Below the pieces are notes generated by a model, which worked only from the letters and a program-made list of their open reading frames with translations, was not told the origin of the DNA and made no database searches. This document shows, one piece after another, positions 12,316 to 54,239 of a DNA stretch of 64,000 bases; position 1 is the first letter of the stretch, and every line of letters starts with the position of its first letter. The stretch comes from Candidatus Multivoradales bacterium (GTDB taxonomy: Bacteria > Acidobacteriota > Thermoanaerobaculia > Multivoradales > Multivoraceae), in NCBI GenBank assembly GCA_965223325.1, contig CBDCWI010000002.1, forward strand, positions 1,248,001-1,312,000, written 5' to 3'. Made by a program: the position numbers and the translations under genes.

Positions 12316-12603
12316 CAGTTGATCCTCGAGAGAGATGGGGAGCGTAGTCGCTGGGAAACAAAGGAAAGCAGGCCGGACCCGCCGCCTCGACCACTGTACC
12401 GGCGCGACCCTACGCAATGCCTTCGGTGACTCGCGACGGGCCGCGGCCGGCGCCGTTGACCTGGGCCTGCCTGGTTGAGTCCTCGGACCAGCGTATCGCC
12501 CGCAGGGGCCCTGTGTTCTGCAGTGTTCCAGCGCTGGGGCTGTACTCTGCGGGCGCACACCCCTTGGACCTCGAACCGACCTCAACGACCCGAGAGACTT
12601 CTG

Positions 12604-13746
12604 ATGACCGAACTTCCTGCGCGCCAACTCCAACTGCAGTCGACGATCACCAAGGGCGGCGAGCTCCGCCTCGAGCTCGTCGAGGTTCCCACTCCCGAGC
12701 TCCGCGACCAGGACGTTCTGGTGCGGGTCGAGGCGAGCCCCATCAACCCCTCGGACCTCGGGCTCCTCTTCGGGGTTGCCGACATGTCGACCGCCCGCGC
12801 TACCGGCACCGATCAAAAACCTGAGATCACTGCCGACGTGCCGGAGAAGGTTCTCGGCGCGATGGCGGGCCGCCTTGACCAGGCGATGCCGGTGGGCAAC
12901 GAAGGCTGCGGCGTGGTCGTGGCTACCGGCTCGGATGAAGCGGCCCAGGCGCTCCTCGGCAAGACCGTGGCAATCCTCGGCGGCGCCATGTACTCCCAGT
13001 ACCGCGCCACCCCCGCCGCCGGTTGCCTGGTTCTTCCCGATGGAACCGACCCTGCGGCCGGTGCGTCGTGCTTCGTCAATCCGCTGACCGCCCTCGGCAT
13101 GGTCGAAACGATGCAACGTGAAGGGCACAGCGCGCTGGTGCACACTGCCGCAGCGTCGAACCTCGGCCAGATGCTCCAGAAAATCTGTCTCGCCGATGGA
13201 ATCGACCTGGTCAATATCGTCCGTCGCGAAGAACAAGCGCAGGTCTTGCGCGATCTCGGAGCGAAGCACGTCTGCGACTCGAGTGCCGAGACCTTTCGCT
13301 CCGACCTCGCCCGCGCGCTCGCTCAGTCGGGCGCCACCCTCGCCTTCGACGCCATCGGCGGCGGGCGCCTGGCCTCGGACATTCTGGCGGCGATGGAGGT
13401 CGCCGCGAGTCAGAACGCCGACACCTACAGCCGCTATGGATCGACCGTTCACAAGCAGGTCTACATCTACGGCGGCCTCGACCGCGGGCCAACGGAACTC
13501 CGCCGTGCCTACGGCATGGCCTGGGGCATCGGGGGCTGGCTGCTGCCGATCTTCCTCGACCGCGTCGGTCCCGAAGTCGGTGCGCGCATGCGGCAGCGGG
13601 TTGCCAACGAACTCCACACCACCTTCGCGAGCTCCTACGCACGCGAGATCTCACTCTTCGAGGCACTCGATCTCGACAACATCGCGATCTACGGCAAGCA
13701 GGCCACCGGCGAGAAGTTCCTGGTGCGTCCCAACAAGGGACTCTGA
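12604..13746 (+). CDS. MDR-family NAD(P)H oxidoreductase (enoyl-reductase-like)
   Basis: EASPINPSDLG, VGNEGCG, FVNPLTALGM, HTAAASNLGQML motifs. Confidence 0.88.
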   Translation: MTELPARQLQLQSTITKGGELRLELVEVPTPELRDQDVLVRVEASPINPSDLGLLFGVADMSTARATGTDQKPEITADVPEKVLGAMAGRLDQAMPVGNEGCGVVVATGSDEAAQALLGKTVAILGGAMYSQYRATPAAGCLVLPDGTDPAAGASCFVNPLTALGMVETMQREGHSALVHTAAASNLGQMLQKICLADGIDLVNIVRREEQAQVLRDLGAKHVCDSSAETFRSDLARALAQSGATLAFDAIGGGRLASDILAAMEVAASQNADTYSRYGSTVHKQVYIYGGLDRGPTELRRAYGMAWGIGGWLLPIFLDRVGPEVGARMRQRVANELHTTFASSYAREISLFEALDLDNIAIYGKQATGEKFLVRPNKGL

Positions 13747-13747
13747 A

Positions 13748-14545
13748 GTGGAACGGCTGAGCAACTACCAGACCCTCCAGTTCGAACGCTCTGACCGCGT
13801 CCTCACCATGACGCTTCAAGGTGCCCCACCGGTGAACGGCGTCACCGAACGCATGCACGAAGAGCTCGCGACGGTGTTCTTCGACCTGCAGCGTGACGAG
13901 GGAAGCGATCTGATCGTCATGACTGGCCAGGGGCGTGCCTTCTGTGCCGGCGCTGATATGGCGTTCTTCGAGCGCATGATCGACGACCCGAAGATCCTGC
14001 GCGACATGCTGCCCGACGCCAAGCGCATCATTCATGGCCTGATCGACCTCGAGAAACCCATCATCTGCCGCATGAACGGCGCCGCCGCAGGGTTGGGAGC
14101 CAGCCTTGCTCTCCTCTCTGACATCATCGTTGCCGACGAGACGTCGAAGATCGGTGATCCGCATGTCAAGGTCGGCCTGGTCGCCGGCGACGGCGGCGCA
14201 ATCATCTGGCCACAGCTCGTCGGCATGGCAAAGGCAAAGGAGCTCCTCCTGACCGGCGACATGATCACCGCCGGCGAGGCCGCCGACCTCGGGCTGATCA
14301 ACTACGCCGTCCCGGCACCGGAGCTCGACACCAAGGTCGAGGCTCTGGCGGCAAAGGTCCTCAGTAACCCCCGCTGGGCGGTGCGTTGGACCAAAACGGC
14401 GATGAACATCACCCTCCGCGACCTCGCCAACAAGATCAACGATGCGGCGATGGCCTACGAGCTGGTGAGCAACCTCACCGAAGACCGCAAAGAGGCGGTG
14501 CGCGCCTTCATCGAGAAGCGCGGGGCCCGGCTGACCGGCGAGTAG
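13748..14545 (+). CDS. Enoyl-CoA hydratase/isomerase family protein
   Basis: GRAFCAGAD, NGAAAGLG, DPHVKVGLVAGDGG motifs; GTG start 1 nt after the upstream stop. Confidence 0.9.
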   Translation: MERLSNYQTLQFERSDRVLTMTLQGAPPVNGVTERMHEELATVFFDLQRDEGSDLIVMTGQGRAFCAGADMAFFERMIDDPKILRDMLPDAKRIIHGLIDLEKPIICRMNGAAAGLGASLALLSDIIVADETSKIGDPHVKVGLVAGDGGAIIWPQLVGMAKAKELLLTGDMITAGEAADLGLINYAVPAPELDTKVEALAAKVLSNPRWAVRWTKTAMNITLRDLANKINDAAMAYELVSNLTEDRKEAVRAFIEKRGARLTGE

Positions 14546-14721
14546 CGGGCCCACACCCTGCGGGCGAGCCTTCCACGCATCGCAACAGGTGCATACTCCG
14601 CGGTGGCGACCCCGGAAACGTATGATTGAGGGGCCGGCTCGCGCAGTCGGTCCTGCCCGTTTCCGCATCCCCGCGGCCCCACCCCCTCCTCAGCCTGACT
14701 CCCAGAAGGGCCTTAGCCTCC

Positions 14722-15618
14722 TTGATTGTCTGCCAGGGACTCACCAAGACCTATCGCAACGGCCACCGCGCCCTGGCGCCCCTCGACCTGACCGTCGACC
14801 AGGGTGTCGTGGGTCTCTTGGGGCCCAACGGGGCCGGGAAGACGACTCTCCTTTCGATGCTGGTCCTGGCACTCGAACCGAGCGCCGGGACCCGGGAGTG
14901 GTTCGGCCTCGACGACCGGCCGGCGCACCACGCAACCATTCGACCCTGGATCGGCTTTCTGCCTCAGGAGATGGACCTGGTAGCCGGCCTGACCGGTCGC
15001 GAGGTCCTCTACTTCGCTGCCCGGCTGCGCCAGGTCGACTTGACGCGCCACCAACTCGACCGGCGCATCACCGGGCTGCTGGCGGCGGTCGGGCTCGAAC
15101 AAGACGGTAACCGTCGGGCCGATCACTACTCGGGCGGCATGCAACGACGACTCGGAACGGCCATGGCCCTCGTGCACCGGCCGCGCTTCCTGGTCGTCGA
15201 CGAACCCACCGCCGGCCTCGATCCTGAAGAACGGTTGCGCTTTCGCGCCCTGGTGACCGAGCTCGGAGACCGCATTCCAGTGCTCCTCTCGACACACATC
15301 GTCGAAGACATCGAGGCCACCTGTCCACGGCTGGTGATCCTCGAAGAAGGTCAGGCCATCTTCGACGATGGGCCGGGGGTGCTCTTCGAGGCAACGGCCG
15401 GCAAAGTCTGGCGCCTGCCACCCGACGCTGCCGACCGGCAAACCGACGCACCGGTCATCGGCCGTGCCAGTGACGGCGAACGGCCGTGCGACGTAGTGTG
15501 GAGCGCCGGACCGCCCGCCGGCTTCGCCGGCGACGAAGTGACATTGCTCGAGCCGAGCCTCGAACAGGCCTATGCGGCCTGGCTCGCCGCCAGCAACGCC
15601 CGGAAGGTGGCGGCATGA
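14722..15618 (+). CDS. ABC transporter ATP-binding protein (ABC-2/DrrA-like; start uncertain)
   Basis: Walker A GPNGAGKTT, signature YSGGM, Walker B VVDE, H-loop STH. Confidence 0.92.
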   Translation: MIVCQGLTKTYRNGHRALAPLDLTVDQGVVGLLGPNGAGKTTLLSMLVLALEPSAGTREWFGLDDRPAHHATIRPWIGFLPQEMDLVAGLTGREVLYFAARLRQVDLTRHQLDRRITGLLAAVGLEQDGNRRADHYSGGMQRRLGTAMALVHRPRFLVVDEPTAGLDPEERLRFRALVTELGDRIPVLLSTHIVEDIEATCPRLVILEEGQAIFDDGPGVLFEATAGKVWRLPPDAADRQTDAPVIGRASDGERPCDVVWSAGPPAGFAGDEVTLLEPSLEQAYAAWLAASNARKVAA

Positions 15619-18407
15619 ACAGCCATCGCTCCAGCCCTTCAATGCTGTGGCCCCTCTTGCGGCTCGAGTGGCTCCTGCAGCTCCGTTCGCTGCGCTTTCG
15701 CTTTGCGGTCGCGCTCTCTCTCGCCCTGGCGGCTTTCCCGCCGCTCCTCCTCCACCTGAACCTGGCAGAGCAGCGCTGGCAGTTCGGACCGACGAGCTTT
15801 CTCACCGAGACCCAGGCGCTTCTGCCACTGCTTTCGGTTCTGTTGACCGTCGCAATCGTCGGCAACACCGCCCGCCGCCCCGGCATGACGCAACTCTTGA
15901 TCTCTTCGCCGATTTCAGTCGCGGGCTACTCGCTGACCAGGCTGTTGGCGCAAATCGCCACCGTCCTGCCGCTCACGTTGCTGGCTCTTCTCCCGGCGCT
16001 CGGCCTGGGCATTTGGCATTTCGGTACCGGCGACCTACCGCTGCGCACGGCTCTCTTGCTGTGGCTCTTGGAGATCGCACCACGTGTTCTGATCGTTGCG
16101 TCTGCCTGGCTGGGCCTGGTTCTCCTGGTGCAGAGTGAGGTGGCGGCCTTCTTCCTCGCCTGGCTCGGTGGGCTGACGGGCGAGGCGCTCCTCGACCGGC
16201 TGACCTTCCCGCTCGGCGTTCGCCTCAGCGAGTCAACGAGCTGGATCGGCATTCAGGAGTTCGGCCAGTGGGTGACAGTCCACTTCTTCATGAACGACAA
16301 CGAGCGGGCATGGCTCACGTTGCCGGCCACCGAGGCCCCGATCGTGCTCGACGCGGCCACCGCCGAGAGCCTGCTGCCCCTCCTCTTGCCACTCGCGGGG
16401 GCGCTCTTGGCTCTCTTGATCGGCATGAGCCGCATGGGTCGAACGACGCCCGACACGGGAGTGCGCCCGATTCCGCCGGATCATCCATTGCGCACCTTTC
16501 TTCAGCGGGCGCGCGACGTCCGCGACGCGATGCGCGCCGACGCCGGGCAGACGACCCGCGATCGCGCCCTTCGTTGGTCCGCTGCGGCCCTGGCCATCGT
16601 GATCGTCTCGATCGCGGTCCTGCGCGCCCGCGCGGTGGTCGATGCCGCAAACCGTCGCTACAACGCCATGGTTGCACCCGCGATCACCGCGACCGACTCC
16701 GCGGCTCGCATCGAGAGGTGGTCCGTCGTCGGCAGCCTTGGACCCCGCGGCCAGCTTTCTACGACGACCACCGGCGTCGTCACCAACACCGGCAATCGAG
16801 CTCTCTTAGCCCTGGGGTTCGAGCTCACCGACGGCGTCCGGGTCGACGCGGTCACGGCGACGGTCGCCGGCCAGACGCGCACAATCACCAAAGAGCGCCA
16901 GTTCGACCGCTTGGGTCTGCTCCTCGAACCCGCCCTCGATCCCGGCGCTACGCTCGAGCTCGAGGTCAAGACTTCGGGCCGGCCGCGCCATCTTGTCCTT
17001 CCGATTCGTGGATCTCTGGCGATCCGTTGGAAGCGCCATCTCGAGGCACGCTTTCCCCGCCATCTCGTCGCCGCCGGGAGCGCTCGTTTTGGCTCGGGGA
17101 TGAGTCCCGAAAGAACCGAACTCGGTCTTTCCGACCTGTCTCCACAGCCTCGCTTCACGACCTGGGAACTCACCCCTCCACCCGAGTTTCCCGGCGGACC
17201 CGGCCGGACCGTTCCGCCAGAGGAGGGACCGAGAGAGGTCGATCTGCGCTTCGATCTCGAGGTGCCAGACACCTGGACGCTCGTCGACTCGTGCGGGCAG
17301 GTGGCAAACGCCGGCCGGCTCCGATCGAGCTGCCGACAGCAGCCTGCGACCTGGCAGCTGGTGGGTGGCCGCGACTATGAACTCCACTCCTCCGCGGACG
17401 GGCAAGTCAAAGCGGCGCTCCTCGCTCCGCATGCGGAAGGTGCAGGTACTGTCTTGTCTGCCATGTCGCGGGTGGCTGAACTGTCGCGCGAAGGAAGAGG
17501 TGGCTTCGCTCCGATCGAGCGCATCACCCTCTGGGAGTACACGCCTCCCTTCGGCGCGCATCCCCAAACGGCACTAGCCGGCTTCCTCAGAAACCGTGAC
17601 GACAAGCCGATCATCAAGGGTCGACTGGTGTGGTTGCCCGAAGCATCGATCCTTCGTCCAGAGCCAATTGCCGCCGAAGCGCTCGCCGCGGCGATCCTCA
17701 TACAGGACGTCGAACTGCCCGAAGCCGCCACCGAAGCGGACGGCCGGGCACTGCGGGCTCTGCTTCGCACCTGGGTCCTCGAGCGCCTGGGCGTCGAACG
17801 GGAGAGTGCGGTGGTGTTCGCCAGCGGCTGGCAGTCCTGGAGCCTCTATCAACCGATGCTCGGAGCTGACCCCTACGACGGCCACTACTGGGGGCAACGC
17901 GTCCCAGCGCTTCTGGTTGACCTCAAGCACCGGGTCGGCGGCGCTGCACTCGACCGGGCCTTTAGGACCACTCTCCTCGAGCCGGAAGCCGCCGCTGCAC
18001 TCCCGGGCCCGGTGAGCGTACGCGGTTTGATCGAAGCGATCGCGCGCGAGTCGGGCAAAGACCTGTCGCAGTACTACGCCGACTACATCGCCCGCGGGCA
18101 CCTGCCGAGACTCATTCTGGCGAACGTCACCTCACGCCCCGAACGCGGTGTCTGGCGGGTCGAAGGCCAGCTGCGCAACGAGGGCCGTGGGCAGTCCGAG
18201 TGCCCCATCGTCGTGCAGACAGTGGCTGGCCCTGCGAGCATCAGAGTCACCGTCGACGGGTCCAGCCAGACGTCCTTCGAACTCGAGACCGATGGGCGCC
18301 CGCACACCGTCGTCGTGGACCCTGAAGAAACCTGTCTGCGTTTTCGCGCCTGGCGGCAACGTCGTCAGGAACGAGCTGACCTGGTCGGCGGAGATGAGGG
18401 CACATGA
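15615..18407 (+). CDS. ABC-2-type permease fused to a large extracytoplasmic, M1-aminopeptidase-like domain lacking HExxH
   Basis: About 7 N-terminal TM helices, then a beta-rich region. C-terminal LLVDLKHRVGGAAL..ESGKDLSQYYADYI..LP..VVVDPE resembles M1 C-terminal motifs. Overlaps the ATPase stop. Confidence 0.65.
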   Translation: MNSHRSSPSMLWPLLRLEWLLQLRSLRFRFAVALSLALAAFPPLLLHLNLAEQRWQFGPTSFLTETQALLPLLSVLLTVAIVGNTARRPGMTQLLISSPISVAGYSLTRLLAQIATVLPLTLLALLPALGLGIWHFGTGDLPLRTALLLWLLEIAPRVLIVASAWLGLVLLVQSEVAAFFLAWLGGLTGEALLDRLTFPLGVRLSESTSWIGIQEFGQWVTVHFFMNDNERAWLTLPATEAPIVLDAATAESLLPLLLPLAGALLALLIGMSRMGRTTPDTGVRPIPPDHPLRTFLQRARDVRDAMRADAGQTTRDRALRWSAAALAIVIVSIAVLRARAVVDAANRRYNAMVAPAITATDSAARIERWSVVGSLGPRGQLSTTTTGVVTNTGNRALLALGFELTDGVRVDAVTATVAGQTRTITKERQFDRLGLLLEPALDPGATLELEVKTSGRPRHLVLPIRGSLAIRWKRHLEARFPRHLVAAGSARFGSGMSPERTELGLSDLSPQPRFTTWELTPPPEFPGGPGRTVPPEEGPREVDLRFDLEVPDTWTLVDSCGQVANAGRLRSSCRQQPATWQLVGGRDYELHSSADGQVKAALLAPHAEGAGTVLSAMSRVAELSREGRGGFAPIERITLWEYTPPFGAHPQTALAGFLRNRDDKPIIKGRLVWLPEASILRPEPIAAEALAAAILIQDVELPEAATEADGRALRALLRTWVLERLGVERESAVVFASGWQSWSLYQPMLGADPYDGHYWGQRVPALLVDLKHRVGGAALDRAFRTTLLEPEAAAALPGPVSVRGLIEAIARESGKDLSQYYADYIARGHLPRLILANVTSRPERGVWRVEGQLRNEGRGQSECPIVVQTVAGPASIRVTVDGSSQTSFELETDGRPHTVVVDPEETCLRFRAWRQRRQERADLVGGDEGT

Positions 18408-19147
18408 GTCGGCAAGCCCGGAGCTCTCTCGGCAGCGTGCCGACGAGAGTGCAGGCCGTTCTCTGGCGCGCCTGGTACGACGTCGACCTCCTCCTCGGCC
18501 GACGCATCTGGCTGCTGCTCCTGGTCGACGGCATGCTGATCCTCTCCGGAATCCAGACCGCCGTCGACGCCGACGGCGACCAGCAAGCCTGGGTTCTGTA
18601 CCGCCAGACCGTGCTCATTCCCGCTTTCGTTCTCATGCTGCCCGCCCTTTCGGCGGTGCTTGCCCTCGAACGGCGGGCGGGGTCTTTAGAACTGGCTCTC
18701 TCCTCGGTCTCGGTAACGCGCTACGTCGCCCGTCGCGTGTGGCCTCTACCTGTGTTCTTTATCGTGCAGTCGCTTTTGGTGATCCCTTTCCTCCCCCACC
18801 CGCGCCGCGCCTGGCTCCTGCTCGTCGCCCTGCACGCGATCGCCGTCATTCTCAGCCTGGTGGCGGTGGTGGTCTTTTGGATCGTACGCATCGAGACTGC
18901 GGGAGGCGTGCTGGTCGCGGCGCTGGCGAGCTCGATCGCGCTCTCGACATTCGTCTTCAGGAGCCCGTTTCCACCGCGCACCGTCTTGACATTCGACCGA
19001 CTGCGACTGCCCCTACTCGAGAACGTCTCGACGCACCTGGTTGAGACTTTGTGGGGAATCGTCGTGCTTCTCGCGACCAGCCTGGTCTTGTTGATCGCTG
19101 CACGGTGGCGACTCCGACGACCGCATCGCCTGGCAGGCCATCACTGA
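18404..19147 (+). CDS. ABC-2-type membrane permease
   Basis: About 6 TM helices with an ERRAGSLEL coupling-type motif; ATGA overlap with the upstream gene. Confidence 0.72.
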   Translation: MSRQARSSLGSVPTRVQAVLWRAWYDVDLLLGRRIWLLLLVDGMLILSGIQTAVDADGDQQAWVLYRQTVLIPAFVLMLPALSAVLALERRAGSLELALSSVSVTRYVARRVWPLPVFFIVQSLLVIPFLPHPRRAWLLLVALHAIAVILSLVAVVVFWIVRIETAGGVLVAALASSIALSTFVFRSPFPPRTVLTFDRLRLPLLENVSTHLVETLWGIVVLLATSLVLLIAARWRLRRPHRLAGHH

Positions 19148-19207
19148 TCGACGGGCCCTCCCCTGCCCCATGGACTCTTCCTACCCGCTAACACCGAGAA
19201 CCCGAAC

Positions 19208-20419
19208 ATGAACCACCTTCAACGACCGCAACAGCGGGCTGCCCCCATCGGGGCGACCGGACTGGTTTGCGTTCTCTGCCTCACCGCGTGCGTAACGCCC
19301 GAGTCCCCACCGGTCGAACCGACAGCGGTCGCCGTGACCTCGGAAGTGGTGGCCAGGAAGCCGTTTCGCGCCGCCATTGACCTACTCGGTGAAGTCGAGG
19401 CTCACTCGCTCACACCCATCACCGCACCCATCGCCGGCGAGCTCGAACTGGCCGCGCGCTTTCGCAACGGGTTCGAAACGGGAGCCAGCGTCCGGCGCGG
19501 TGAGGTGCTGGCAACCATCTCCAACCTCGACCTACGCCTGGAGGTCGACCGCGCCACACTCGAAGTGTCCACCAAGGACGCCGAACTCGAACGGACCCAA
19601 GCTGGCGTTGATGCAGGAGTCGTGCGCGACGTCGATTTGGAGCGGGCGCGAGACGAGGCGAAGATCGCCCACGCGCAGCTCGAGGCTGCGCGAGCACGTC
19701 TAGAACGTCGTATCGTGCGCTCGCCGAGAACCGGATGGCTGCGGGTCGCCGAAACGATCCACTCGGCAACTGAAGTCTCGGCCGGGCAGGTCTTGGCAAG
19801 CGTCGCGGAAGGTGGACCCCAGCGCATCGTCGCGTGGGCCAGTGCCTCGGACCTGCCGCGTCTTCGCTCGGCGCTCGACGACCCCTCGACCGTTGTCGAG
19901 GCTCGGCTTCCAGGCCGAATCGAGCCGATCGCCAGCGGGCGGTTGGTCGAAGTCGCCCGCGACCTCGACCAGCACGGCGCGGCGCGGATCGGCGCAGTAG
20001 CCCTCGAGTCCTACCTGCTTCCGCCAGCCGGTCAGGGGCTCGAAGTGCGGGTCCTCATCGGCGAGGCCGAAGACAGCCTCACGGTGCCCGAAGACGCCCT
20101 GGTCAAACGCTCGGGCATCTCCTCGGTCTGGGTCCTCGAAACCACGGGCGATCACTTCCGGGCGAACCATCGCATCGTCACCCTCGGCGGCCAGAACGAC
20201 GGCACCTGGCAGGTCGTCGACGGGCTGGCCGAAGGCGAGCGCATTGCTGTGCGTGGGGTGGAGTTGCTCAGCGACGGTGGACTCGCCATTCGCGACGACC
20301 GTCGGCGGACGGCCTCGGGTCGCTGGGTGAGCAGCGACGACTCACCGCCGGAATCCGCGCGCACAGGCCAGGACGAAAGTGAACCCGGCGACCAGGAGCA
20401 GGAGACGGCCGACCCTTGA
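19208..20419 (+). CDS. RND efflux periplasmic adaptor (MFP) lipoprotein
   Basis: Lipobox LTAC; lipoyl-like G.SVRRGEVLA, alpha-hairpin, IVRSP..G, LTVPEDAL, GLAEGERI. Confidence 0.88.
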   Translation: MNHLQRPQQRAAPIGATGLVCVLCLTACVTPESPPVEPTAVAVTSEVVARKPFRAAIDLLGEVEAHSLTPITAPIAGELELAARFRNGFETGASVRRGEVLATISNLDLRLEVDRATLEVSTKDAELERTQAGVDAGVVRDVDLERARDEAKIAHAQLEAARARLERRIVRSPRTGWLRVAETIHSATEVSAGQVLASVAEGGPQRIVAWASASDLPRLRSALDDPSTVVEARLPGRIEPIASGRLVEVARDLDQHGAARIGAVALESYLLPPAGQGLEVRVLIGEAEDSLTVPEDALVKRSGISSVWVLETTGDHFRANHRIVTLGGQNDGTWQVVDGLAEGERIAVRGVELLSDGGLAIRDDRRRTASGRWVSSDDSPPESARTGQDESEPGDQEQETADP

Positions 20420-23400
20420 CGACCCGCAAGTCAGAGGACAGGGAAAACGATCCGGCGCCCCCCGGACCACCGCTAGAGGGCCCGGTGCGGCGACTGGTGT
20501 CGGCCTGCCTCGAGCGCCCGACCGCCGTCACCATCGCCAGCCTTGCGTTGGTGGCACTCGGCGCTCTCTCACTCCTTCGACTGCCGGTCGCCCTCTTGCC
20601 GCAGCTCGAACGACCCGCCCTGGTGGTCTTGCTCGAGGACCCGGAAGCCGGCCGGGAGGATCTGCTCCTGCGCGCCGTCGAGCCGCTCGAGCGCCGTTTG
20701 ATGACGCTCCCGGGAGTCTTGCGCGTCGAAAGTTGGGTCGGCGACGGTACAGCGCGCCTGGTCACTGAAGCCGAGTGGCAAACCGATCCTGACACCTTGC
20801 GCATCGACGCAGAGCGCCGCCTCGCCGGAATCGATCTCGGCAACGCACGGCGCACCATCACGATGCGCTCGGGCGACTCCGAACCGGTTCTCTCGATTGT
20901 CATCACCGGCGGCCGTTCGGCGATCCACCGCGCACGATTCACCGACCGCACCCTGGTTCCCGAGTTGGCGACCAGCCGTGGCGCCGGCGACCTGCACCGC
21001 ACGGGCGGTGCCACCCTGCGGCCCGTGGTTCGGCCCCATGCGGCAGCTCTTGCCGCCAACGACCTGTCCGCCCACAGCATCGCACTGCGACTCGAGAGCA
21101 TCGGAGAAAGCCGGCCGATCGGCCGCATCCGCGAAGGAGGCGAACGCAGAGCGCTCGAGTTCGGAGAGACGGTGCGTACTATCGAAGAACTCGCGCGCGT
21201 CCGCGTGTACCGCGAAGGCGAGATGAGCGAGGGGCCCGGTGTCGCTCTCGGAGACCTTGCCCAGGTGGCGCTCGAGTCGGTGCGTGAGGACGGCCTCTAT
21301 CGCTACCGCGGACGCGACGCGGTCCTGCTCGAGCTCTGGCGAGGCCCCGGCCAGAACGCGGTGCGACTGGCGCGCGACGCCAAACAGAAGGTCGCCTCCC
21401 TCAAAAGTGCGGCGAACGCCGAAGGGATCGAGCTGCAGACGATCGACAACGCCGGCGACGAGGTGGAGCAAGCACTGCTGGCGCTCGGCGGAGCGGCGCT
21501 CCTCGGCCTGTTCTTCGCCACCGTCATTCTGCGTTTGCTCCTCGGCGCCTGGCTCCCGACCCTGGTTCTCGCGGTCATCATTCCGGCGTCTCTCGCGATT
21601 ACCTTTGGCCTCTTCCTGCTCACCGGCACGACGCTCGACATCGTGGCGCTCGCTGGCCTGGCGCTGGCGATCGGACTCCTGGTCGACAACTCGATCGTGG
21701 TGCTCGAAGCGATCGCGGTGACAAGTCGCCGAGGAAAGCAGGAAGTAGGCGATGAAGCGGACGCTGGTGTCAGTGAGCTGGGAACACAGGCCACGGTACG
21801 AACGGTTGTCGCGACCGGCGTCGGAGGAGTTGCGGCGGCATTGGTGGGCAGTTTTCTCACCACCGCTGCGATCTTCATTCCCCTCATCTATCTACGCGGC
21901 CTGGCTCGCGCGTTCTTTGGCGTTCAGGCCTTCGCCATCGTCGGAGCGCTCCTGGTCTCGCTCCTCTTGTCGTTGACTCTGCTTCCCGTCATCGTTTCGG
22001 TCTTCGGTCGAGGTCGTCGATCGGCTCCTCGCGCCCTCCTTCGATCGGCGGTTGAGAGCGGGCGTCAACCGCTGCGCCCCCTCTTTCTGCGCCTTCTCCG
22101 CGCCGCGCTCAGAACACCGCGAACTACCGTGGTCTTCGCCTCGCTCGTCGCCCTTGTGACCGGTGGTCTCGCGTACCTGACCCTACCGCGCGCCTTGATG
22201 CCTGGCGGACCGGCCCAGGGTCTCGAGGCCACCCTCACCTTCCCCGGTGACCTCGACGAGGACGCGGTGCTCGAGCGGATGCTCGAACTCGAGGCGAACC
22301 TGGTGGGCAACGCCAACCATCCCTGGTCGTTGCGCTGGCGGACCGCTGGCCTCGCCGATCCCGACCCCGACGAACGGGAGAATGGCCTCCTCCGTCTGGT
22401 GGGAGAACCGGACAACCGTGAGTTTGACGAGTTCATCGCCCGTACCCGCGAAGCGCTCCTCCGAACGCCTGGCCTCGACTCGAGCCTCAGGCGCCGGGGT
22501 AGCGCCCTCGAGCGCGCCTTCGATCGCAGCCTGGCCCGCTTCGAGATCGATGCCAGCGCGCCCACACCGGTCAGCGCTCGCCAGTTGGCCGACCGCGTTC
22601 TCGAGGCCGACGCGACCCAAGCGGGAGGAGCCCGGCTCGTCGAGCGTTACCCACCCACACCGCATCGCACGCTCCACCTCCGCCCAGGTGTTCTCGGCAA
22701 GGTCGACGCGGTGAGTATCGAGCGCCAGGTGGGAGCGAGCCTCGGCGGCATCGAAGCCGGTCGTCTCGACGGCGACGCCTATCCCGATGCCGACGCCGCC
22801 ATCCTCCTCGAGGCTACCGAACCAAGAGATCCAGCACGCCTCCCGGTGGTCACCGCAAGCGTGACCCAGGGAGGCGAGCGAGCGGTGCCGCTTGGAGTCC
22901 TGGCGGTCTTCGAAGACCGACGCTCACCTGCACCGTGGTTCAGAGTCAACGGCCGGCCGTCGGTGCGCATCGAGCAGGCCTCCGGCGCACCGCTCCATGA
23001 GGGAGCGCTCGAGCTCCGGCCGGACGAAACCCTCCGGCCAACCGGAACCGCCTTCGAAACGCGGCGTTCCTTCAGACAGCTCGGCCTCGCTCTGGGACTC
23101 GGCCTGGTCCTCATGTGGCTAACCCTCGCGGCGCTTCAGGAGTCGCTCGTTCTGCCCCTCGCGACCCTCTTGACCCTCCCGATCGCAATCGCCGGCGGCC
23201 TGACGGCGCTTCTGGTCTCTGGGCAGACCCTCAACGTCGCGTCGATTCTCGGACTGGTGCTGTTGTCTGGGATCGTGGTCAACAACTCCATCGTACTTCT
23301 CTTTCGAATGGAGTCGCATTGGCGAGGCGGTGCCAGCGCGCCCGAGGCCGCGCTCCTAGGAGCACGCGAGCGCTACCGCCCCATCCTCATGACCTCGGCC

Positions 23401-23556
23401 ACCACGGTCGCAGCCCTCCTGCCCTTGGCCATCGCCGGTGCCGGAATCGAGGCATCGCTCGCTGTCGGCGTCATCGGTGGGCTGCTCGCCGGCTTCATCG
23501 GCTCGCTGATCGTCTCGCCGGCGACCTGGGCACTGCTGCGCCGGGCGAGTCAGTAG
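20416..23556 (+). CDS. RND efflux permease (AcrB/MdtBC superfamily)
   Basis: 1046 aa; TM4 GLLVDNSIVVLE, TM10 GIVVNNSIVL, RYRPILMT, GVIGGL. Confidence 0.9.
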   Translation: MTTRKSEDRENDPAPPGPPLEGPVRRLVSACLERPTAVTIASLALVALGALSLLRLPVALLPQLERPALVVLLEDPEAGREDLLLRAVEPLERRLMTLPGVLRVESWVGDGTARLVTEAEWQTDPDTLRIDAERRLAGIDLGNARRTITMRSGDSEPVLSIVITGGRSAIHRARFTDRTLVPELATSRGAGDLHRTGGATLRPVVRPHAAALAANDLSAHSIALRLESIGESRPIGRIREGGERRALEFGETVRTIEELARVRVYREGEMSEGPGVALGDLAQVALESVREDGLYRYRGRDAVLLELWRGPGQNAVRLARDAKQKVASLKSAANAEGIELQTIDNAGDEVEQALLALGGAALLGLFFATVILRLLLGAWLPTLVLAVIIPASLAITFGLFLLTGTTLDIVALAGLALAIGLLVDNSIVVLEAIAVTSRRGKQEVGDEADAGVSELGTQATVRTVVATGVGGVAAALVGSFLTTAAIFIPLIYLRGLARAFFGVQAFAIVGALLVSLLLSLTLLPVIVSVFGRGRRSAPRALLRSAVESGRQPLRPLFLRLLRAALRTPRTTVVFASLVALVTGGLAYLTLPRALMPGGPAQGLEATLTFPGDLDEDAVLERMLELEANLVGNANHPWSLRWRTAGLADPDPDERENGLLRLVGEPDNREFDEFIARTREALLRTPGLDSSLRRRGSALERAFDRSLARFEIDASAPTPVSARQLADRVLEADATQAGGARLVERYPPTPHRTLHLRPGVLGKVDAVSIERQVGASLGGIEAGRLDGDAYPDADAAILLEATEPRDPARLPVVTASVTQGGERAVPLGVLAVFEDRRSPAPWFRVNGRPSVRIEQASGAPLHEGALELRPDETLRPTGTAFETRRSFRQLGLALGLGLVLMWLTLAALQESLVLPLATLLTLPIAIAGGLTALLVSGQTLNVASILGLVLLSGIVVNNSIVLLFRMESHWRGGASAPEAALLGARERYRPILMTSATTVAALLPLAIAGAGIEASLAVGVIGGLLAGFIGSLIVSPATWALLRRASQ

Positions 23557-23557
23557 C

Positions 23558-26500
23558 GTGAGGCAAACCAACCGAAAGCCTGCCGGGCAGAATCGGAGCC
23601 TTTCGGCGATTCTCATTCTCCTTTCCCTCTGGATCATCGGCGGAGTCGCCGCCACCGAGCTCCAACCGAGCTGGCTGCCAACGGCCGGTGGCGGCGACCT
23701 GCGCATCAACCTCACGCTCAGAAACGCCCTGCCCGTCGAAGTGGTCACCGAACGCTTCGTCGTGCCCATCGAGGCGGCGACGCGCGCCGCCGGAGGAATC
23801 CAGGAAGCGGTCGGTAGAGTTTCGACACACGGCGCTGATCTCCAGCTGCGCCTGGCGCCCGCACCCGCGACCGGGATCCCGAGGAGCACAACCACCGCTG
23901 GCGAGCGCAAACTCGCACGCCTCGAAACCGAGCTTTTGCCTCTGCGCGAAACACTGCCCGAAGGCGCGCGACTCGAGGTTTCAGCCGGCAGTCGCACGCG
24001 CAGCTTCGCGCTCGCACTGTGGATCGATGACGACGAGGCGGCCATCACCTCGCACCGCGATCGTTTGCGCGCCCTGCCGGAGGTGCGCCACGTCGATCTA
24101 GCGGGCGTTGGAAACACGCGTGTCGAAATCACGCCGCGACCAGAGTCGAATGACCCGGAGTCGAGGCGCGCCATAGAGACAGCCGCTAACCACGTCGCTC
24201 GCAGCGTCGACCTCGGGACCTATCGCACAGAGACCGGGCAGGAGATTCCGCTACGCACCGGTAGCCCCGCCTCCAGGAACCAGACCCTGGGTGAGACCGT
24301 CATCGCTGCTGGAGGCACGGCCCCGCCCATGCGACTCGACGCGATCGCCGATCTCGCCATCAACCGTCGCGCCGCCGACTTCCGCGTGCGCGCCGACGGA
24401 GAGGCCGGACGAGCCCTCCTCATCCATGGCCAAGACGGCGGCACACAGCGCGATGCGGCGGGCGGCCCGCTGGCCCTGCGGCGCGCGCTCGACCGTTACC
24501 GCGCCACGCACGACCTGCTGGAGAACAGCCGCATTCTCTTCGACGACGGTGGGCCGCTGCGCGACTTTCTAGGCCGCGGCTTGACGGCCCTTGTTGTCCT
24601 CGCACTCGTTCTCCTCGTCGCTGGTTGGTCGTCGCTCGGACCGCGAGCGGGACTCTGGTGGGCTTCCTCGCTCCCCACCGCCATGGCTCTGGTTGCGACC
24701 GCAGCCCGACTTTTGGACTTCGAACTGACGATCGTCACCATGCCGACCATCCTCGTGGGACTTCTCGCGGGGCCGCTGGCCCACTCGCTTCTCATGATGG
24801 CGAGGTCCGACGAAGGTGGGAGGGGCAGTCGCTGGCTCTGGTTCTTCGCCGCCTCGAGTCTCAGCCTGGTGGCCATCCGTTGGCTCGGAGGACCTCTGGC
24901 GCCAATCCTCGAAGGGCCGGCGCGCGTGTTCTGGACAACCACTACGCTGGCCGCGTTGGGCGGTACGGGAACAGGCCTCTTCGCGCGCCGCGCTGCAACG
25001 CGGGGTGGGCAGCGGCCCAAGCTGCGACCGACGGCACAGCGCTTCGCCCGCACCATCCTGCGCCTCAACTTGCGCCACGCACCAGCGGTCGTAGCGGTCA
25101 CCCTTCTACCGGTCTGGTTCGCTGTCGGCTGGCTCTTGCCCACCCTCACGCCGCGGCCAACCAGCCTGGCTCCTCCGAGCGACGACCTGGTGATCGAGGT
25201 CATGCCTCCGCATGGGTACACGGTCTCGGAAACGGAACAGTTGGTCGCCAATATCGAAGCCCATCTACAAGCGAAGTTCAAGCAGCGCCCACCTGGTGGG
25301 ACGCCCGAAAACGACGGTGCAACCTGGTGGTCGTGGCTCGGCGCCTCCCAGGCGCGCATTCTCATCGACCTCCACGAGGACTTGGGGCGGGGCGAGCTGG
25401 AACGCCGCGCGCTGCGCCTCGAAAGCGAGCTCGCGGTCCTCCCGGCGATCATAGAAGTCAAGAGTCTGACCGACGGTGCGGCGGCATCGGCCCCGGCCGT
25501 GCGTTTCTCGGGCAGCCTGGCGAGCGAGGCCGAGACCGACGACGACGCCTTCAGCTATCGCGTCCTCTTGAGCGCCACCCGCCTCGAGGCGCTGCGCCGC
25601 GCCGAGCGCCTCATCACTCGCGGCCTGTCGACACGCGGCATTCCGCCGCGCTCGATTCACACCGCCTGGAGCACTCCCGAAACCATCGTTCGCCTCGAAC
25701 CGATCACCGCCGGTGGTCTCGGGGCCAGCGAAGCGGCGGCCCTCGATCTGCTCGCCGAACGCAGCCGACCGCCGGTCAGCCGACCGCTGGCGGGTCAACG
25801 TGACATCGAGTGGACGCTTCGCCGGCCCGGCACTCCGACTCACGTCGACCCAGAACAGCTACCGCCGCCTGAACTCGAAACACTCCGCCGCCCCGAGGTC
25901 ACCACCCTCGGGCCAATCGCTCCGCTCGATGCCTTTCGCCTCAGACGGACCCTACGCGAGCCCATGGTTCTGCGCGAGAACGGCCGCTACGTGCTACCTG
26001 TCGATATCGCGCTTTCCGGTAGCGAATCAAAGCGCCGAGCGCTGCAAAGAGACACCCACCGCTGGCTGGGACAAAGGGCAGGCTCACTCGGCGTCCACAT
26101 CGAACGTCCGCGCATGGGGCGCTGGGAGAGGGCACTGGAGCACCAGCGCCTCTTGTCTCTCCTGCTCTTTCTCCCGGTTCTGGCGCTGGTCCTCGCCGGC
26201 ATCCGGCTCGACTCCTCTACTCTCGCCCTCTTCTCAGGCGCAGCGTTGGCGGTGGCGATCTCGGTTGCGATCCTGGCGTTGCGCGCCGGCAGTGGCCAGG
26301 CCTCCGCGATGAGTCTCTTCGCCCTCGCGACGGGGATCTCGCTGTCGTTGCCGATGCTCCTCGAGCACCTGGCGCGCGGCGCCGATGCCTCTCGGGTTCA
26401 CCAACCGTATGGCTGGCGCGGTGACCTCCGCGTCTCCGGTTTCTCGATTGCCGCGCTGCGACGACTGCTCCAAAACATCGTGCCGTTCGCCTGCGTGGCG

Positions 26501-27778
26501 ATGTTGCCGCTTCTGCTGGCTGTCCTGGCAGGTGCCGGCCTCGAGAGAACTCGCGAACCGTGGGTGGAACCGCTCTACACCGCTGGCTTCGCGGCAACCG
26601 CTCTGATGCTGACCGCGTTGGCGCTGACACCGGCGCTCCTGGCTCTTCGTCGCGCCGCGATCTCGAAAGCGAGGACCAGTAGAGGCGCCCGCTCAGAAGA
26701 ATGGCAGAAACTGACCTCGCCGCCGCCCTGGCGCGAGCCGGCCCTCGGCAAGGCGGGCGACGGCGGCGCTCCGGAGATCGAAGTCCGGCACCTGACCCGG
26801 GTGTACCGACCGCCGACAGTCAGACTGCATCGCAAGATCAGCGATGGCCGGCCGCCCGACCCGCGCCAGGCGCGCGAGGGTTTCAGGGCGCTCTATGACC
26901 TGAACTTCGAACTCGGTCCCGGCATCGTGGGCCTGCTTGGTCCCAACGGAGCCGGCAAGACGACTCTTCTCCACCTCCTGTGCGGCCTGGCACATCCAGA
27001 CCGTGGTCGCTTGATGTACCGCGGCGTGACCGTCACACCGCTCAACCTGACCGCCTATCGCCGACGCATCGGCTACCTTCCCCAAACGTTCAACGCACCT
27101 GCCCGGGTTTCGGTTGAGCGCTTTCTCGACTATCAGGCGCTCGAACTCGGCATTCACGATCGGAGCGAGCGCCGGCGGATCATCGACGGGTTACTCGAGC
27201 GGGTCGAGCTCGAACAGGCGCGCACCACCGAGGTCCGAGAGCTGTCCGGTGGTATGCGAAGGCGTGCTGGCGTAGCGCGAGCACTGATCGGTGACCCTGG
27301 TGTTCTGATCGTCGATGAACCGACCACCGGGCTCGACGTCGACTCGCGTCGCAAGTTGCGCCAGACCCTGCTCGAGGTCGCCGACCAGCGCATCGTCTTC
27401 TTCTCGACCCACATCGCCAGTGACATTCAAGCCGCCGCGGTTCGCATTCTGGTTCTTGGGGCTGGTCGACTGCTCTTCGACGGTTCGGCTGAAGAGCTCA
27501 AGCGACGCGCCGGGAGCCGGGTAGCCGTTGCCACGACTGACGACGTCGCGCTGCGTGCTCTCCTCACCGAATACCGCGTGACAACCCGGGTGCGCACGGC
27601 CGACGGAGTGAAAGTGCGCTTCGTGCTCGCACCAGGCCAACCGCTGCCTCCCGGCGCGGTTGCCGAGAAGCCGACTCTCGAGGAGGCCTGCGTCGCCCTC
27701 ATGGCGGAGCAACTAGACGGTGCGTTAGAGCTCGAGCCCGAGCGCGCCACCTCGGTCTTGTGGCCTTCGGCCAGCTAG
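23558..27778 (+). CDS. Degenerate RND permease-like protein fused to a C-terminal ABC ATPase domain
   Basis: About 1040 aa with a two-repeat TM/periplasmic RND-like layout, then GPNGAGKTT, YLPQ, LSGGM, LIVDE, STH. Single uninterrupted ORF. Confidence 0.8.
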   Translation: MRQTNRKPAGQNRSLSAILILLSLWIIGGVAATELQPSWLPTAGGGDLRINLTLRNALPVEVVTERFVVPIEAATRAAGGIQEAVGRVSTHGADLQLRLAPAPATGIPRSTTTAGERKLARLETELLPLRETLPEGARLEVSAGSRTRSFALALWIDDDEAAITSHRDRLRALPEVRHVDLAGVGNTRVEITPRPESNDPESRRAIETAANHVARSVDLGTYRTETGQEIPLRTGSPASRNQTLGETVIAAGGTAPPMRLDAIADLAINRRAADFRVRADGEAGRALLIHGQDGGTQRDAAGGPLALRRALDRYRATHDLLENSRILFDDGGPLRDFLGRGLTALVVLALVLLVAGWSSLGPRAGLWWASSLPTAMALVATAARLLDFELTIVTMPTILVGLLAGPLAHSLLMMARSDEGGRGSRWLWFFAASSLSLVAIRWLGGPLAPILEGPARVFWTTTTLAALGGTGTGLFARRAATRGGQRPKLRPTAQRFARTILRLNLRHAPAVVAVTLLPVWFAVGWLLPTLTPRPTSLAPPSDDLVIEVMPPHGYTVSETEQLVANIEAHLQAKFKQRPPGGTPENDGATWWSWLGASQARILIDLHEDLGRGELERRALRLESELAVLPAIIEVKSLTDGAAASAPAVRFSGSLASEAETDDDAFSYRVLLSATRLEALRRAERLITRGLSTRGIPPRSIHTAWSTPETIVRLEPITAGGLGASEAAALDLLAERSRPPVSRPLAGQRDIEWTLRRPGTPTHVDPEQLPPPELETLRRPEVTTLGPIAPLDAFRLRRTLREPMVLRENGRYVLPVDIALSGSESKRRALQRDTHRWLGQRAGSLGVHIERPRMGRWERALEHQRLLSLLLFLPVLALVLAGIRLDSSTLALFSGAALAVAISVAILALRAGSGQASAMSLFALATGISLSLPMLLEHLARGADASRVHQPYGWRGDLRVSGFSIAALRRLLQNIVPFACVAMLPLLLAVLAGAGLERTREPWVEPLYTAGFAATALMLTALALTPALLALRRAAISKARTSRGARSEEWQKLTSPPPWREPALGKAGDGGAPEIEVRHLTRVYRPPTVRLHRKISDGRPPDPRQAREGFRALYDLNFELGPGIVGLLGPNGAGKTTLLHLLCGLAHPDRGRLMYRGVTVTPLNLTAYRRRIGYLPQTFNAPARVSVERFLDYQALELGIHDRSERRRIIDGLLERVELEQARTTEVRELSGGMRRRAGVARALIGDPGVLIVDEPTTGLDVDSRRKLRQTLLEVADQRIVFFSTHIASDIQAAAVRILVLGAGRLLFDGSAEELKRRAGSRVAVATTDDVALRALLTEYRVTTRVRTADGVKVRFVLAPGQPLPPGAVAEKPTLEEACVALMAEQLDGALELEPERATSVLWPSAS

Positions 27779-27824
27779 CCGACCCCAGGAAAGGCTGAGG
27801 AGCATGAGCCGCCCTTGCCGCTTC

Positions 27825-28853
27825 TCAGCGCCCGAGGACGATGTCGGCAACTCGGCGGAGAGTCTCGGGATCGCGGGTGCCGACCAGCAGCGTGGTGACC
27901 AGGCTGTCGTCCCAGGCGGCAAGCCGATCGCGGATTCTCTCGGGCGAACCCACCAGTGAGATCTCGTCGGCGAACTCCGTCGGCACGAGGGCTGCCGCCT
28001 CTTGGCGGCGGCCCGACATGAAGGCGTCCATGATCTCTTCTGCGAGCTTGGGATAGCCCATGCGCGCGAAGAGTTCGCGATGGAAGTTGCGCTTCTTCGA
28101 GCCCATGCCACCAACGTAGAAACTCACCCGCTCCCGCACGCTCATGAGCGCCTTGTCGACGTCGTCCTCGAGGACGATGGGAACGCCGTAGAAGATCTCG
28201 AACCCCTTCTCCATTCCCACCAGCGAATCTCTATAGACCTCGGGTCGGTAAGGCGTGTAGTAGAGCGGGATCCAACCGTCGCAGAGCTCGACCGCCAACG
28301 CAACGTTCTTCGGCCCTTCGGCTCCGAGAATGATGGGCAGGTCGGCTCGCAATGGGTGCACGATGGGCTTGAGCGGTTTGCCCATTCCCCACGAGCCCTC
28401 GCCGGTGTAGGGCAGCGGGTAGTGCTCGCCGTGGTTCTTGACCGGCGCTTCGCGCCGCATGACCTGGCGAATGATCGAAACGTACTCGCGAGTGCGTGAG
28501 AGAGGCTTCGCGAACGGTTGCCCGTACCATCCCTCGACGACCTGCGGCCCCGAAACTCCCAGCCCGAGGATGACCCGGCCACCGCTCAGATGATCGAGCG
28601 TGAGGGCATGCATCGCGGTCGCCGTCGGTGTGCGCGCCGAGAGCTGCGCGATCCCAGTACCCAGGCGAATGCTGGAGGTCTGGGAACCGATCCACGAAAG
28701 TGGCGTGAAAACGTCGCTACCCCAGGCCTCGGCGGTGAAGACCGAAGTAAAGCCAAGCTCCTCCGCCACGACGGCAAGATCGACAAAACCGGGAGTCGGT
28801 CCAGCGTCCCAATAACCGAGGGCGAGTCCGAGTTCGAGTGCCATCGCCGCCAA
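27825..28853 (-). CDS. LLM class, probably F420-dependent oxidoreductase (Rv3520c-like)
   Basis: LGYW..FTAEAWGSD..SARTPTA..LGLGVSGPQVVEGWYG..GAEGPKNV closely matches my recollection of the Rv3520c family. Confidence 0.85.
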   Translation of the reverse strand: MAAMALELGLALGYWDAGPTPGFVDLAVVAEELGFTSVFTAEAWGSDVFTPLSWIGSQTSSIRLGTGIAQLSARTPTATAMHALTLDHLSGGRVILGLGVSGPQVVEGWYGQPFAKPLSRTREYVSIIRQVMRREAPVKNHGEHYPLPYTGEGSWGMGKPLKPIVHPLRADLPIILGAEGPKNVALAVELCDGWIPLYYTPYRPEVYRDSLVGMEKGFEIFYGVPIVLEDDVDKALMSVRERVSFYVGGMGSKKRNFHRELFARMGYPKLAEEIMDAFMSGRRQEAAALVPTEFADEISLVGSPERIRDRLAAWDDSLVTTLLVGTRDPETLRRVADIVLGR

Positions 28854-53932: not shown

Positions 53933-54239
53933 GGGTGGTGAGGGAACAGGGAGGGGAAGCCTGCGCCGGGCACCCGGGTCCGAGGGGGGCTGGGAACCGA
54001 GAGCCGGTGCACGACCGAACGAGGAGACTGACCAAGGAGGCCAAACAAGATGAAGGACGGCGCGTCATACGCGGAAGTCCAGCCACCGGCTTCTCCCTCC
54101 AGAGTTTGAGACCGGCCTCGTCGTCGCAAGTCACACCGATCCCTTCGGGGAAAGCAACCAACGCGCACCGGCCATTGGTAAGGCGAGTCGCCGCGACAAT
54201 AGCCGAGTGGGCAGTACACTGCCGTCGAGGTCCCTGGAG

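Follow-up and report, generated by a model that had tools for sequence, protein, structure and literature searches.

The locus analysed here is a six-gene operon at positions 14722–27778 of a 64,000-nucleotide stretch of contig CBDCWI010000002.1 (assembly GCA_965223325.1, positions 1,248,001 to 1,312,000, forward strand) of Candidatus Multivoradales bacterium, and this whole stretch is referred to below as the window. The operon consists of six co-directional, tightly packed long open reading frames (ORFs; G+C 66–68%) encoding an ATP-binding cassette (ABC) module, made up of a free nucleotide-binding domain (NBD1) and a large and a small permease (bigTM and smallTM), followed by a resistance-nodulation-division (RND) module, made up of a membrane fusion protein (MFP), an RND permease and an RND-like protein fused to a second ABC ATPase (RND-like–NBD, with NBD2 as its ATPase domain). 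Coordinates are collected in Table 1. Adjoining genes are joined by ATGA overlaps (NBD1/bigTM and bigTM/smallTM), a TTGA overlap (MFP/RND) or a 1-nt spacer (RND/RND-like–NBD), and the close-packed ABC and RND run reported in a preliminary description of this DNA was verified, with one 60-nt spacer (19148–19207) between smallTM and MFP. The TTG start of NBD1 agrees with the MIExxGLTKTY of its orthologues, and for the TTG-initiated RND gene a later start is possible. Scans of 14300–28300 returned 0 promoter-like sites and 10 terminator-like sites (7.2 ± 2.7 expected), and both were uninformative. The operon is a TolC-less variant of an undescribed ABC–RND hybrid operon, and what is new in the window version is the degenerate RND part, devoid of proton-relay motifs, together with the absence of TolC.

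Table 1. Features of the hybrid operon in the window, and related loci in other contigs and genomes.
Feature	Coordinates	Strand	Size	Description
NBD1 (P0001)	14722 (TTG)–15618	+	298 aa	free ABC ATPase, DrrA/GldA-like (ABC-2) type
bigTM	15615 (ATG)–18407	+	930 aa	ABC-2 permease by homology, with predicted M1-aminopeptidase-fold domain
smallTM	18404–19147	+	247 aa	permease with 6 transmembrane helices, likely ABC-2 fold
MFP (P0004)	19208–20419	+	403 aa	RND-type periplasmic adaptor, probable lipoprotein
RND (P0005)	20416 (TTG)–23556	+	1046 aa	canonical RND permease
RND-like–NBD (P0006)	23558 (GTG)–27778	+	1406 aa	fusion protein
RND-like domain of P0006	23558–26677	+	residues 1–1040	full-length degenerate RND, by sequence
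Linker of P0006	26678–26776	+	residues ~1041–1073	placed from six-orthologue alignment
NBD2 of P0006	26777–27778	+	residues 1074–1406	C-terminal fused ABC ATPase
Sister operon, L014	2181–15851			five-gene operon, related genus
Sister operon, L016	4196–17492	-		five-gene operon, related genus
Stand-alone pair, L047	7471–12092			own genome, other contig; ATPase, then 1236-aa protein

Conservation of the gene block was assessed in related genomes. A search of 41 of them detected the RND-like part in 7, including the window's own, each time within an open frame of 1319–1602 codons, and uninterrupted fusion frames were present in 8 genomes with the window included. In a wider sample of 301 genomes of the phylum (a tally that includes the unpublished G063 and G189, relevant only to the count of ordinary RND matches), full-length orthologues at E<1e-150 were found in five (G000, G025, G031, G109 and G249). 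All six genes were colinear in 7/7 relatives examined, at 24–56% protein identity: the gene arrangement was identical in five relatives that represent four families of the order (28–56% identity), and two from another family of the class had the same arrangement with overlapping stop and start codons at most junctions. One carrier, G015, was left out of this judgement, its operon lying at a contig edge. Six flanking proteins of the window, including the nearest outer-membrane factor (OMF), had no counterpart in any of 11 fetched loci. Because the order is kept in all seven relatives while the flanks differ, the block is more than a chance arrangement, and the six genes form one conserved unit. 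Co-conservation of the ABC and RND genes, the neighbourhood check suggested in the preliminary description, was thus a clear pass, and its claim that the two modules belong together is well supported by this colinearity and by a sister operon type found at 4/4 loci (see below). The ABC-2 permease genes and the fusion gene occurred together in every locus (8/8 of the window type, 4/4 of the sister type), and no fusion lacking ABC partners was seen, in the course of searches not dedicated to that question.

The two ATPases were compared by domain search, motif conservation and phylogeny. NBD1 matched ABC_tran (PF00005) at 82.6 bits, with drrA and the GldA subfamily as its top NCBIfam models, both under cut-off; residues 1114–1257 of P0006 matched ABC_tran at 100.9 bits. 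The two domains are 35–37% identical. In NBD1, Walker A, the Q-loop, signature SGGM, Walker B DE and the H-loop are invariant in 8/8 orthologues, and in NBD2, Walker A, Q1176, SGG, D1253-E1254 and H1285 are invariant or >95% conserved among 37–41 family members, so that judged by motif both are catalytically intact and NBD2 is near-frozen. In a quick maximum-likelihood tree, the ATPases of both operon types, free as well as fused, together with a stand-alone ATPase of the same genome (L047, see below), form one clade (Shimodaira–Hasegawa-like approximate likelihood ratio test, SH-aLRT, 97), within which the fused ATPases of both operon types are one clade (SH-aLRT 93) and every orthologue group is monophyletic. 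The earlier assignment of the free and fused ATPase to a common subfamily was borne out by this clade, and the motifs quoted for it are present in both. Within P0006, NBD2 is carried on a tether of ~35 residues with a PP.W motif in 5/6 orthologues shown, and no hydrophobic segment was found past residue 1024. Two relatives have an extra, distant ABC ATPase gene 2–3 kb upstream of the operon (L012 967–1587, L018 2373–2957), which falls outside the operon ATPase clade.

The RND module begins with an adaptor and a pump of recognisable families. MFP matched TIGR01730 (RND_mfp) at 111.6 bits (cut-off 94.9) and HlyD_3 at 24 bits, and a lipobox-like LTAC read by eye at residues 25–28 marks it as a probable lipoprotein. 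The RND permease P0005 matched ACR_tran at 373 bits, with 7b8p_A as its closest solved relative (E 8.6e-44); relative to that protein the first Asp of transmembrane helix (TM) 4 and the TM11 Arg are retained, and the second Asp and the TM10 Lys are replaced by Asn. The resulting DN/NN pattern was considered as a mark of ATPase-linked pumps and rejected, as it is present in unrelated RND frames of the genome (3/12 other RND frames, with DS/NN in 2 more).

The fusion protein's N-terminal part (P0006, residues 1–1060) gave no match to Pfam, NCBIfam or PDB sequences, with no ACR_tran (PF00873) at E≤0.01, no significant BLASTP alignment to the neighbouring P0005, and only itself in a word-index homologue search. 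Profile–profile alignment with hhalign of six orthologues of this part against the six neighbouring RNDs produced a match spanning 918 columns (residues 11–1031 against 32–1041, 18% identity; E 4.7e-29, probability 99.8), and the hydrophobic segments follow the RND-like layout of one helix and a cluster, then one helix and a cluster. By this alignment the N-terminal part is an RND homologue across the whole 12-TM, two-loop architecture. With the same profile, most genomes of the phylum yielded matches to ordinary RND pumps (1e-20 to 1e-35), and an exhaustive hidden Markov model (HMM) search of a library of 1.84 billion proteins returned 7119 proteins at E≤1e-3; among 57 rows at E≤1e-100, 42 were 1217–1441 aa long. 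Sampled members of the family all have a C-terminal ABC_tran (7/7), and 6/7 pass the Pfam cut-off for ACR_tran through their first 200–395 residues (39–100 bits), so that Pfam misses the P0006 part because the window copy is too diverged.

The family alignment, read by eye, revealed what the RND-like part has lost. The TM4, TM10 and TM11 relay residues are essential in AcrB-type, proton-driven RND pumps. In the hhalign alignment a gap stands opposite VDNSI, the TM4 Asp motif of the RND; a mid-TM4 acidic residue was seen in 0/37 aligned members (one has an Asp beside the cytoplasmic end of the helix), and the TM10 K/N-N motif in 0/37, and a YR that may be the counterpart of the TM11 Arg is common, not universal, in the same 37. 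By sequence the part is therefore classed as a full-length but degenerate RND without the TM4 and TM10 relay motifs. Approximately 42 of the 57 positions conserved at ≥85% fall in the two periplasmic loops (hand count), including the invariant or near-invariant E72 and R76, and orthologue identity is 27–30% for the RND-like part against 36–42% for the neighbouring RND. The preliminary description had read this protein as a second RND fused to an ATPase, which holds on both counts (the RND homology at E 4.7e-29 and the ABC_tran match), and as part of a heteromeric, MdtBC-like RND. It is, however, no ordinary MdtC-like paralogue: it is strongly diverged, lacks the TM4 Asp and TM10 motifs, and escapes Pfam.

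In an RND tree, every fused RND part lay on the same side of a branch with support of 100, and the stem leading to the window-type fusions measured 1.19 changes per site, their terminal branches being long. Since the fused ATPases of both operon types form one clade, the RND–ATPase fusion appears to be old; the ATPase and RND trees, both of them quick searches in which branches are long and composition is odd, are together suggestive of a single old fusion, after which the RND part degenerated in the lineage of the window.

For bigTM, no direct Pfam, NCBIfam or PDB sequence match was obtained. Alignment by hhalign against the pair of large proteins of the sister operon type gave E 5.5e-17 over 787 columns; one of that pair reaches ABC2_membrane_2 at 29.5 bits (cut-off 27.2), and the sister large protein also has a weak Peptidase_M1 match and a Golvesin_C domain. 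A second alignment, against the half of the genome's stand-alone ABC-2/M1 protein that comprises its second transmembrane domain (TMD2) and its M1 domain, gave probability 96.0 and E 4.2e-9. The large permease named in the preliminary description is accordingly an ABC-2 permease by homology, through the hhalign match at E 5.5e-17. Its topology is ~6 TM plus a seventh TM. An AlphaFold model of middling confidence (predicted local distance difference test, pLDDT, 69.7) was searched with Foldseek and matched IRAP, ERAP1, PepN and tricorn F3 at E 1e-15 to 4e-13 with probability 1.0 over ~620–650 aligned columns, and the modelled domain has an M1-aminopeptidase fold. HExxH and GxMEN are missing in 6/6 orthologues, and HExxH also in 4/4 metagenome homologues (a word-index search with the bigTM alignment returned the protein itself plus 4) and in 2/2 sister-type proteins, so the M1 domain is predicted to be catalytically dead, without a zinc site. 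The seventh helix and two invariant cysteines, C561 and C574, suggest that this domain is periplasmic; the numbering is that of the bigTM alignment A2, whose window row runs from 15612 and is one residue longer than the protein from its true start at 15615. As bigTM corresponds to the TMD2 and M1 half of a double-TMD protein, it would need a second TMD.

The candidate for that second domain is smallTM, for which no Pfam match was obtained in 6/6 members. Its confident model (pLDDT 83.5) has six helices, and the 15 best rows of a VIA-align search were all ABC-transporter membrane domains at Z 12.0–8.8 (ABCG5/8 at Z 12.0; ABCG2 at Z 11.8, root-mean-square deviation 3.7 over 203 residues; NosY at Z 11.6), where Z under ~13 can reflect a common helical arrangement. 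By Foldseek, NosY came first at E 0.046 with no match at ≤1e-3, and NosY, ABCG and PmtCD dominated the list; an Atlas search gave 'ABC-2 type transport system permease' at score 0.96, taken as a lead only. Because such Z values can come from generic helical bundles, the ABC-2 fold of smallTM is likely, not proven. An invariant ER..G.L.LAL loop follows TM2, at what we take to be the site where ABC-2 permeases touch their ATPase. At E≤1e-5, smallTM has 312 homologues, and the names of several point to metagenome bins of Acidobacteriota or Thermoanaerobaculia.

No outer-membrane efflux protein (OEP, or TolC) domain was found in the operon or adjoining it in the window, in agreement with the earlier statement that the operon is without TolC. 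The genome itself has 20 OEP-domain matches in ~10 gene-sized frames elsewhere, and an OMF channel supplied in trans is for that reason possible. Five relatives were tested in the same way: four had no OEP on the operon's contig and in the fifth the nearest lay ~188 kb off, with 19–28 OEP-domain matches elsewhere per genome. The nearest OEP in the window is a 538-aa ORF with two OEP matches (~54495–55721), ~27 kb from the operon; it heads a run at 54207–58677 (+) in which ORFs of 420 and 531 aa follow, probably a separate efflux or secretion cluster.

Two related gene sets place the operon in context. On another contig of the same genome, the stand-alone pair L047 encodes an ATPase, which is the closest NBD1 paralogue and belongs to the same clade, followed by a protein with two ABC-2 domains and a Peptidase_M1 domain with HEAAH-x18-E; the gene that follows the pair encodes a beta-lactamase-fold protein. 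By its domains the pair is of the TC 3.A.1.145 type with what reads as a live zinc site. The founder of that TCDB family is Q1D520 of Myxococcus xanthus, an ABC-2 permease with a C-terminal M1 zinc aminopeptidase, and the family is described as a 1200-aa ABC-2 domain of 13 transmembrane segments fused to Peptidase M1, catalogued in 2013 with its function unknown (PMC3924187); this family was the only one found in a literature search, of incomplete coverage, for ABC-2/M1 permeases (PMC3924187). The likeness lies in the alignment of bigTM with the TMD2 and M1 part of such a protein of the same genome, and indicates at the level of sequence that the ABC half of the operon descends from TC 3.A.1.145. 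In contrast to that family, the permease here is encoded by separate large and small genes inside an RND operon, and HExxH is missing from all six bigTM orthologues, whereas the stand-alone paralogue keeps its HEAAH-x18-E.

The second set is the sister operon type, defined by a canonical RND–ATPase fusion. Library proteins of 1445–1590 aa have a complete ACR_tran (505–650 bits) and ABC_tran in 6/6 tested, canonical fusions overall are 1445–1604 aa with ACR_tran at 491–650 bits, and four genomes carry such a gene (1588–1604 aa in two measured). Database names of these proteins include 'multidrug efflux pump subunit AcrB/ABC-type multidrug transport system ATPase subunit'. At 4/4 loci a canonical RND gene precedes the fusion, with a free ATPase and a dead-M1 ABC-2 permease (~1150 aa) nearby; in L014 and L016 the order is free ATPase, a 1146–1180 aa permease with ABC-2, dead M1 and Golvesin_C domains, adaptor, RND and fusion. 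The adaptor was identified by Pfam in L014, by a weak tblastn match in L015 and as a 496-aa ORF at the corresponding place in L016; in L017 none was located. The sister type thus shares with the window a free NBD, a dead-M1 ABC-2 permease, an adaptor, an RND and an RND–NBD fusion, the fused NBDs falling in one clade, and differs in its fully canonical RND part and its single ABC-2 permease gene with a Golvesin_C end domain. Like unfused RNDs, the RND part of these fusions retains the TM4 (Asp) and TM11 motifs, and it follows that fusion preceded the loss seen in the window's lineage and does not require it.

In five of the eight canonical fusions inspected, ~260–290 additional residues, among them membrane helices, lie ahead of and within the ATPase, against 110–172 in the other three. 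In the fusions P0105, P0147, P0092 and those of L014 and L016, two hydrophobic helices come after the RND part, and a further set of approximately four interrupts the ATPase, separating its first beta-strand from the Walker A strand; no such membrane insertion is present in P0119 or P0109. Such an insertion within an ABC ATPase is odd. The extra helices were considered as a replacement for smallTM, without a formal test, and this was dropped, as the helices vary among the fusions and in 3/8 are short or missing.

Outside the operon, an enoyl-CoA hydratase gene lies upstream on the same strand (13118–14545, +), genes for an AMP-binding enzyme and a zinc alcohol dehydrogenase are also found upstream, and luciferase-like monooxygenase genes flank the operon on both sides (11050–13617, -, and 27825–28853, -). 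In the relatives, none of these neighbours is kept beside the operon.

Among described systems, the RND half most resembles the heteromeric pumps MdtABC–TolC and MuxABC, with which it shares a pair of neighbouring RND paralogues placed behind one adaptor gene. PMC8277102 counts two transporter genes in mdtABC and notes that heterotrimeric RND pumps, such as MdtBC, are rare. The likeness here comes from the gene arrangement (adaptor, RND, RND-like); unlike MdtABC, the second paralogue is degenerate, without the TM4 and TM10 motifs, and covalently fused to an ABC ATPase, and the operon adds a complete ABC-2 module and has no OMF gene in cis. In NosDFY, MacB and LolCDE, cytoplasmic ATP hydrolysis moves a periplasmic domain, and NosY is among the top structural matches of smallTM (Z 11.6; Foldseek rank 1). 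The periplasmic domains are non-homologous, being of predicted M1 fold here and a beta-helix in NosD, with those of MacB known as the Sabre and Porter domains, and we know of no RND component in NosDFY, MacB or LolCDE. MacAB also uses an adaptor and TolC (PMC8277102). A literature search of incomplete coverage found no description of an RND–ABC fusion or of such an operon, one elsewhere being possible, and no covalent or obligate RND–ABC link was described in the literature searched.

The best explanation overall, to which we assign a probability of roughly 0.5, is that the six genes encode one functional unit joining two kinds of inner-membrane motor. That the unit is functional is highly probable, and physical association of the ABC and RND modules is somewhat favoured. 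Under the proposed mechanism, the tethered NBD2 would pair with the free NBD1 beneath bigTM and smallTM, and through this pairing the RND assembly would be physically linked with the ABC transporter. ATP hydrolysis would then move the periplasmic dead-peptidase domain, in the manner of the mechanotransmitting NosDFY, MacB and LolCDE, and this domain would capture or hand over cargo, for which a peptide-like or amphipathic envelope molecule is our guess. On the cargoes suggested in the preliminary description (protein, peptide or lipid), the one feature with any bearing is the dead M1 fold of the large permease. The canonical RND would supply proton-driven transport, the degenerate RND may serve, in a mixed trimer like MdtB2C, as a protomer that conducts no protons, and the exit would be formed by the adaptor together with an outer-membrane channel whose gene lies elsewhere. 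An NBD1–NBD2 dimer under bigTM and smallTM, as supposed in the preliminary description, is proposed because it is the simplest count (two TMD and two NBD genes, 1:1:1:1) and because bigTM is half of a double-domain permease; we regard its chances as evenly balanced. A 2:1 mixed trimer containing the degenerate RND part is put forward more tentatively, as a possibility on the doubtful side.

Several results weigh against this reading. By hhalign, smallTM could not be aligned significantly with either the membrane domain of bigTM (probability 4.5%, E 0.009) or the TMDs of the stand-alone protein (E 0.21), and no OMF gene was found in cis in the window or in 5/5 relatives tested. The sister type has one ABC-2 permease gene, so the argument from two TMDs and two NBDs is not general. 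Other results also speak for two separate machines co-regulated in one operon, namely an ABC-2 exporter formed by an NBD1 homodimer with bigTM and smallTM, and an RND pump, made up of adaptor, RND and degenerate RND, on which NBD2 would form a self-dimer or act as an ATP-sensing regulator: the stand-alone ABC-2/M1 transporter of the same genome has a single ATPase gene, so NBD1 could homodimerise; NBD1 is slightly nearer to that stand-alone ATPase, its top paralogue in the genome (E 1.9e-46), than to NBD2 (7.6e-38); both NBDs are fully consensus, their complete catalytic sites leaving no asymmetry that would hint at an obligate heterodimer; and in the sister locus L017 (985–14524) the ATPase and dead-M1 permease genes are divergent from the two RND genes. 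Sequence data fit a heterodimer and two homodimers alike, and hence cannot tell the pairing apart. A four-chain complex prediction (bigTM 8–282, smallTM 12–242, NBD1 1–235 and NBD2 1072–1325, individual alignments, NBD2 set as the partner chain), run without controls, scored 0.13 against a mark of 0.32 and is evidence neither way. What makes two machines rather unlikely is that the ABC-2 and fusion genes co-occur at all loci of both types, that a fusion without ABC partners was never seen (though not searched for), that translational coupling over the module boundary is strict in most loci, and that an RND trimer would bring three tethered NBDs, which is odd for a domain that works as a dimer.

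The fused ATPase could instead drive the RND itself, with the two pseudo-symmetric six-helix halves of the degenerate RND each docking an NBD, ATP replacing the proton relay, and the ABC-2 module being accessory. The TM4 and TM10 motifs are indeed lost precisely in the ATPase-bearing protein, NBD2 is strongly constrained, and the RND-like frame has been kept for >1000 codons in dozens of lineages. We nevertheless hold this to be improbable: the retention of TM4 and TM11 motifs in the sister fusion places fusion before loss, no cytoplasmic element resembling a coupling helix could be pointed to in the RND-like part, and smallTM keeps its invariant loop at the presumed ATPase-contact site of ABC-2 permeases. 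That the fusion is a decaying remnant, an old RND–ATPase fusion losing its RND function and without a role, would agree with the failure of Pfam to recognise the RND part, with its lower orthologue identity compared with the neighbouring RND, and with the long stem and terminal branches in the RND tree, but is very hard to reconcile with intact 1217–1441 aa frames in 42 library clusters and 8 genomes, with the invariant or near-invariant periplasmic E72 and R76, and with invariant ATPase motifs.

RND pumps are, in textbook terms, proton-driven, and ABC transporters ATP-driven. The most far-reaching reading, which we consider somewhat unlikely, is that an RND-fold protomer gave up proton translocation and came to be driven or gated by an ABC ATPase dimer shared with an ABC-2 transporter, a new energy coupling under which ATP hydrolysis and proton-motive force would work on the same cargo in one envelope-spanning machine, with a dead M1 domain as periplasmic cargo handler. 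The family looks common among uncultured soil bacteria, judged from the 312 smallTM homologues, and automatic annotation hides the system, because each component is labelled either hypothetical or a plain RND permease. The operon raises a testable question, namely whether an RND assembly is powered, gated or loaded by ATP hydrolysis, and the window version may serve as a natural experiment, in which the fused RND has lost its proton-relay residues while the ATPase stays invariant.

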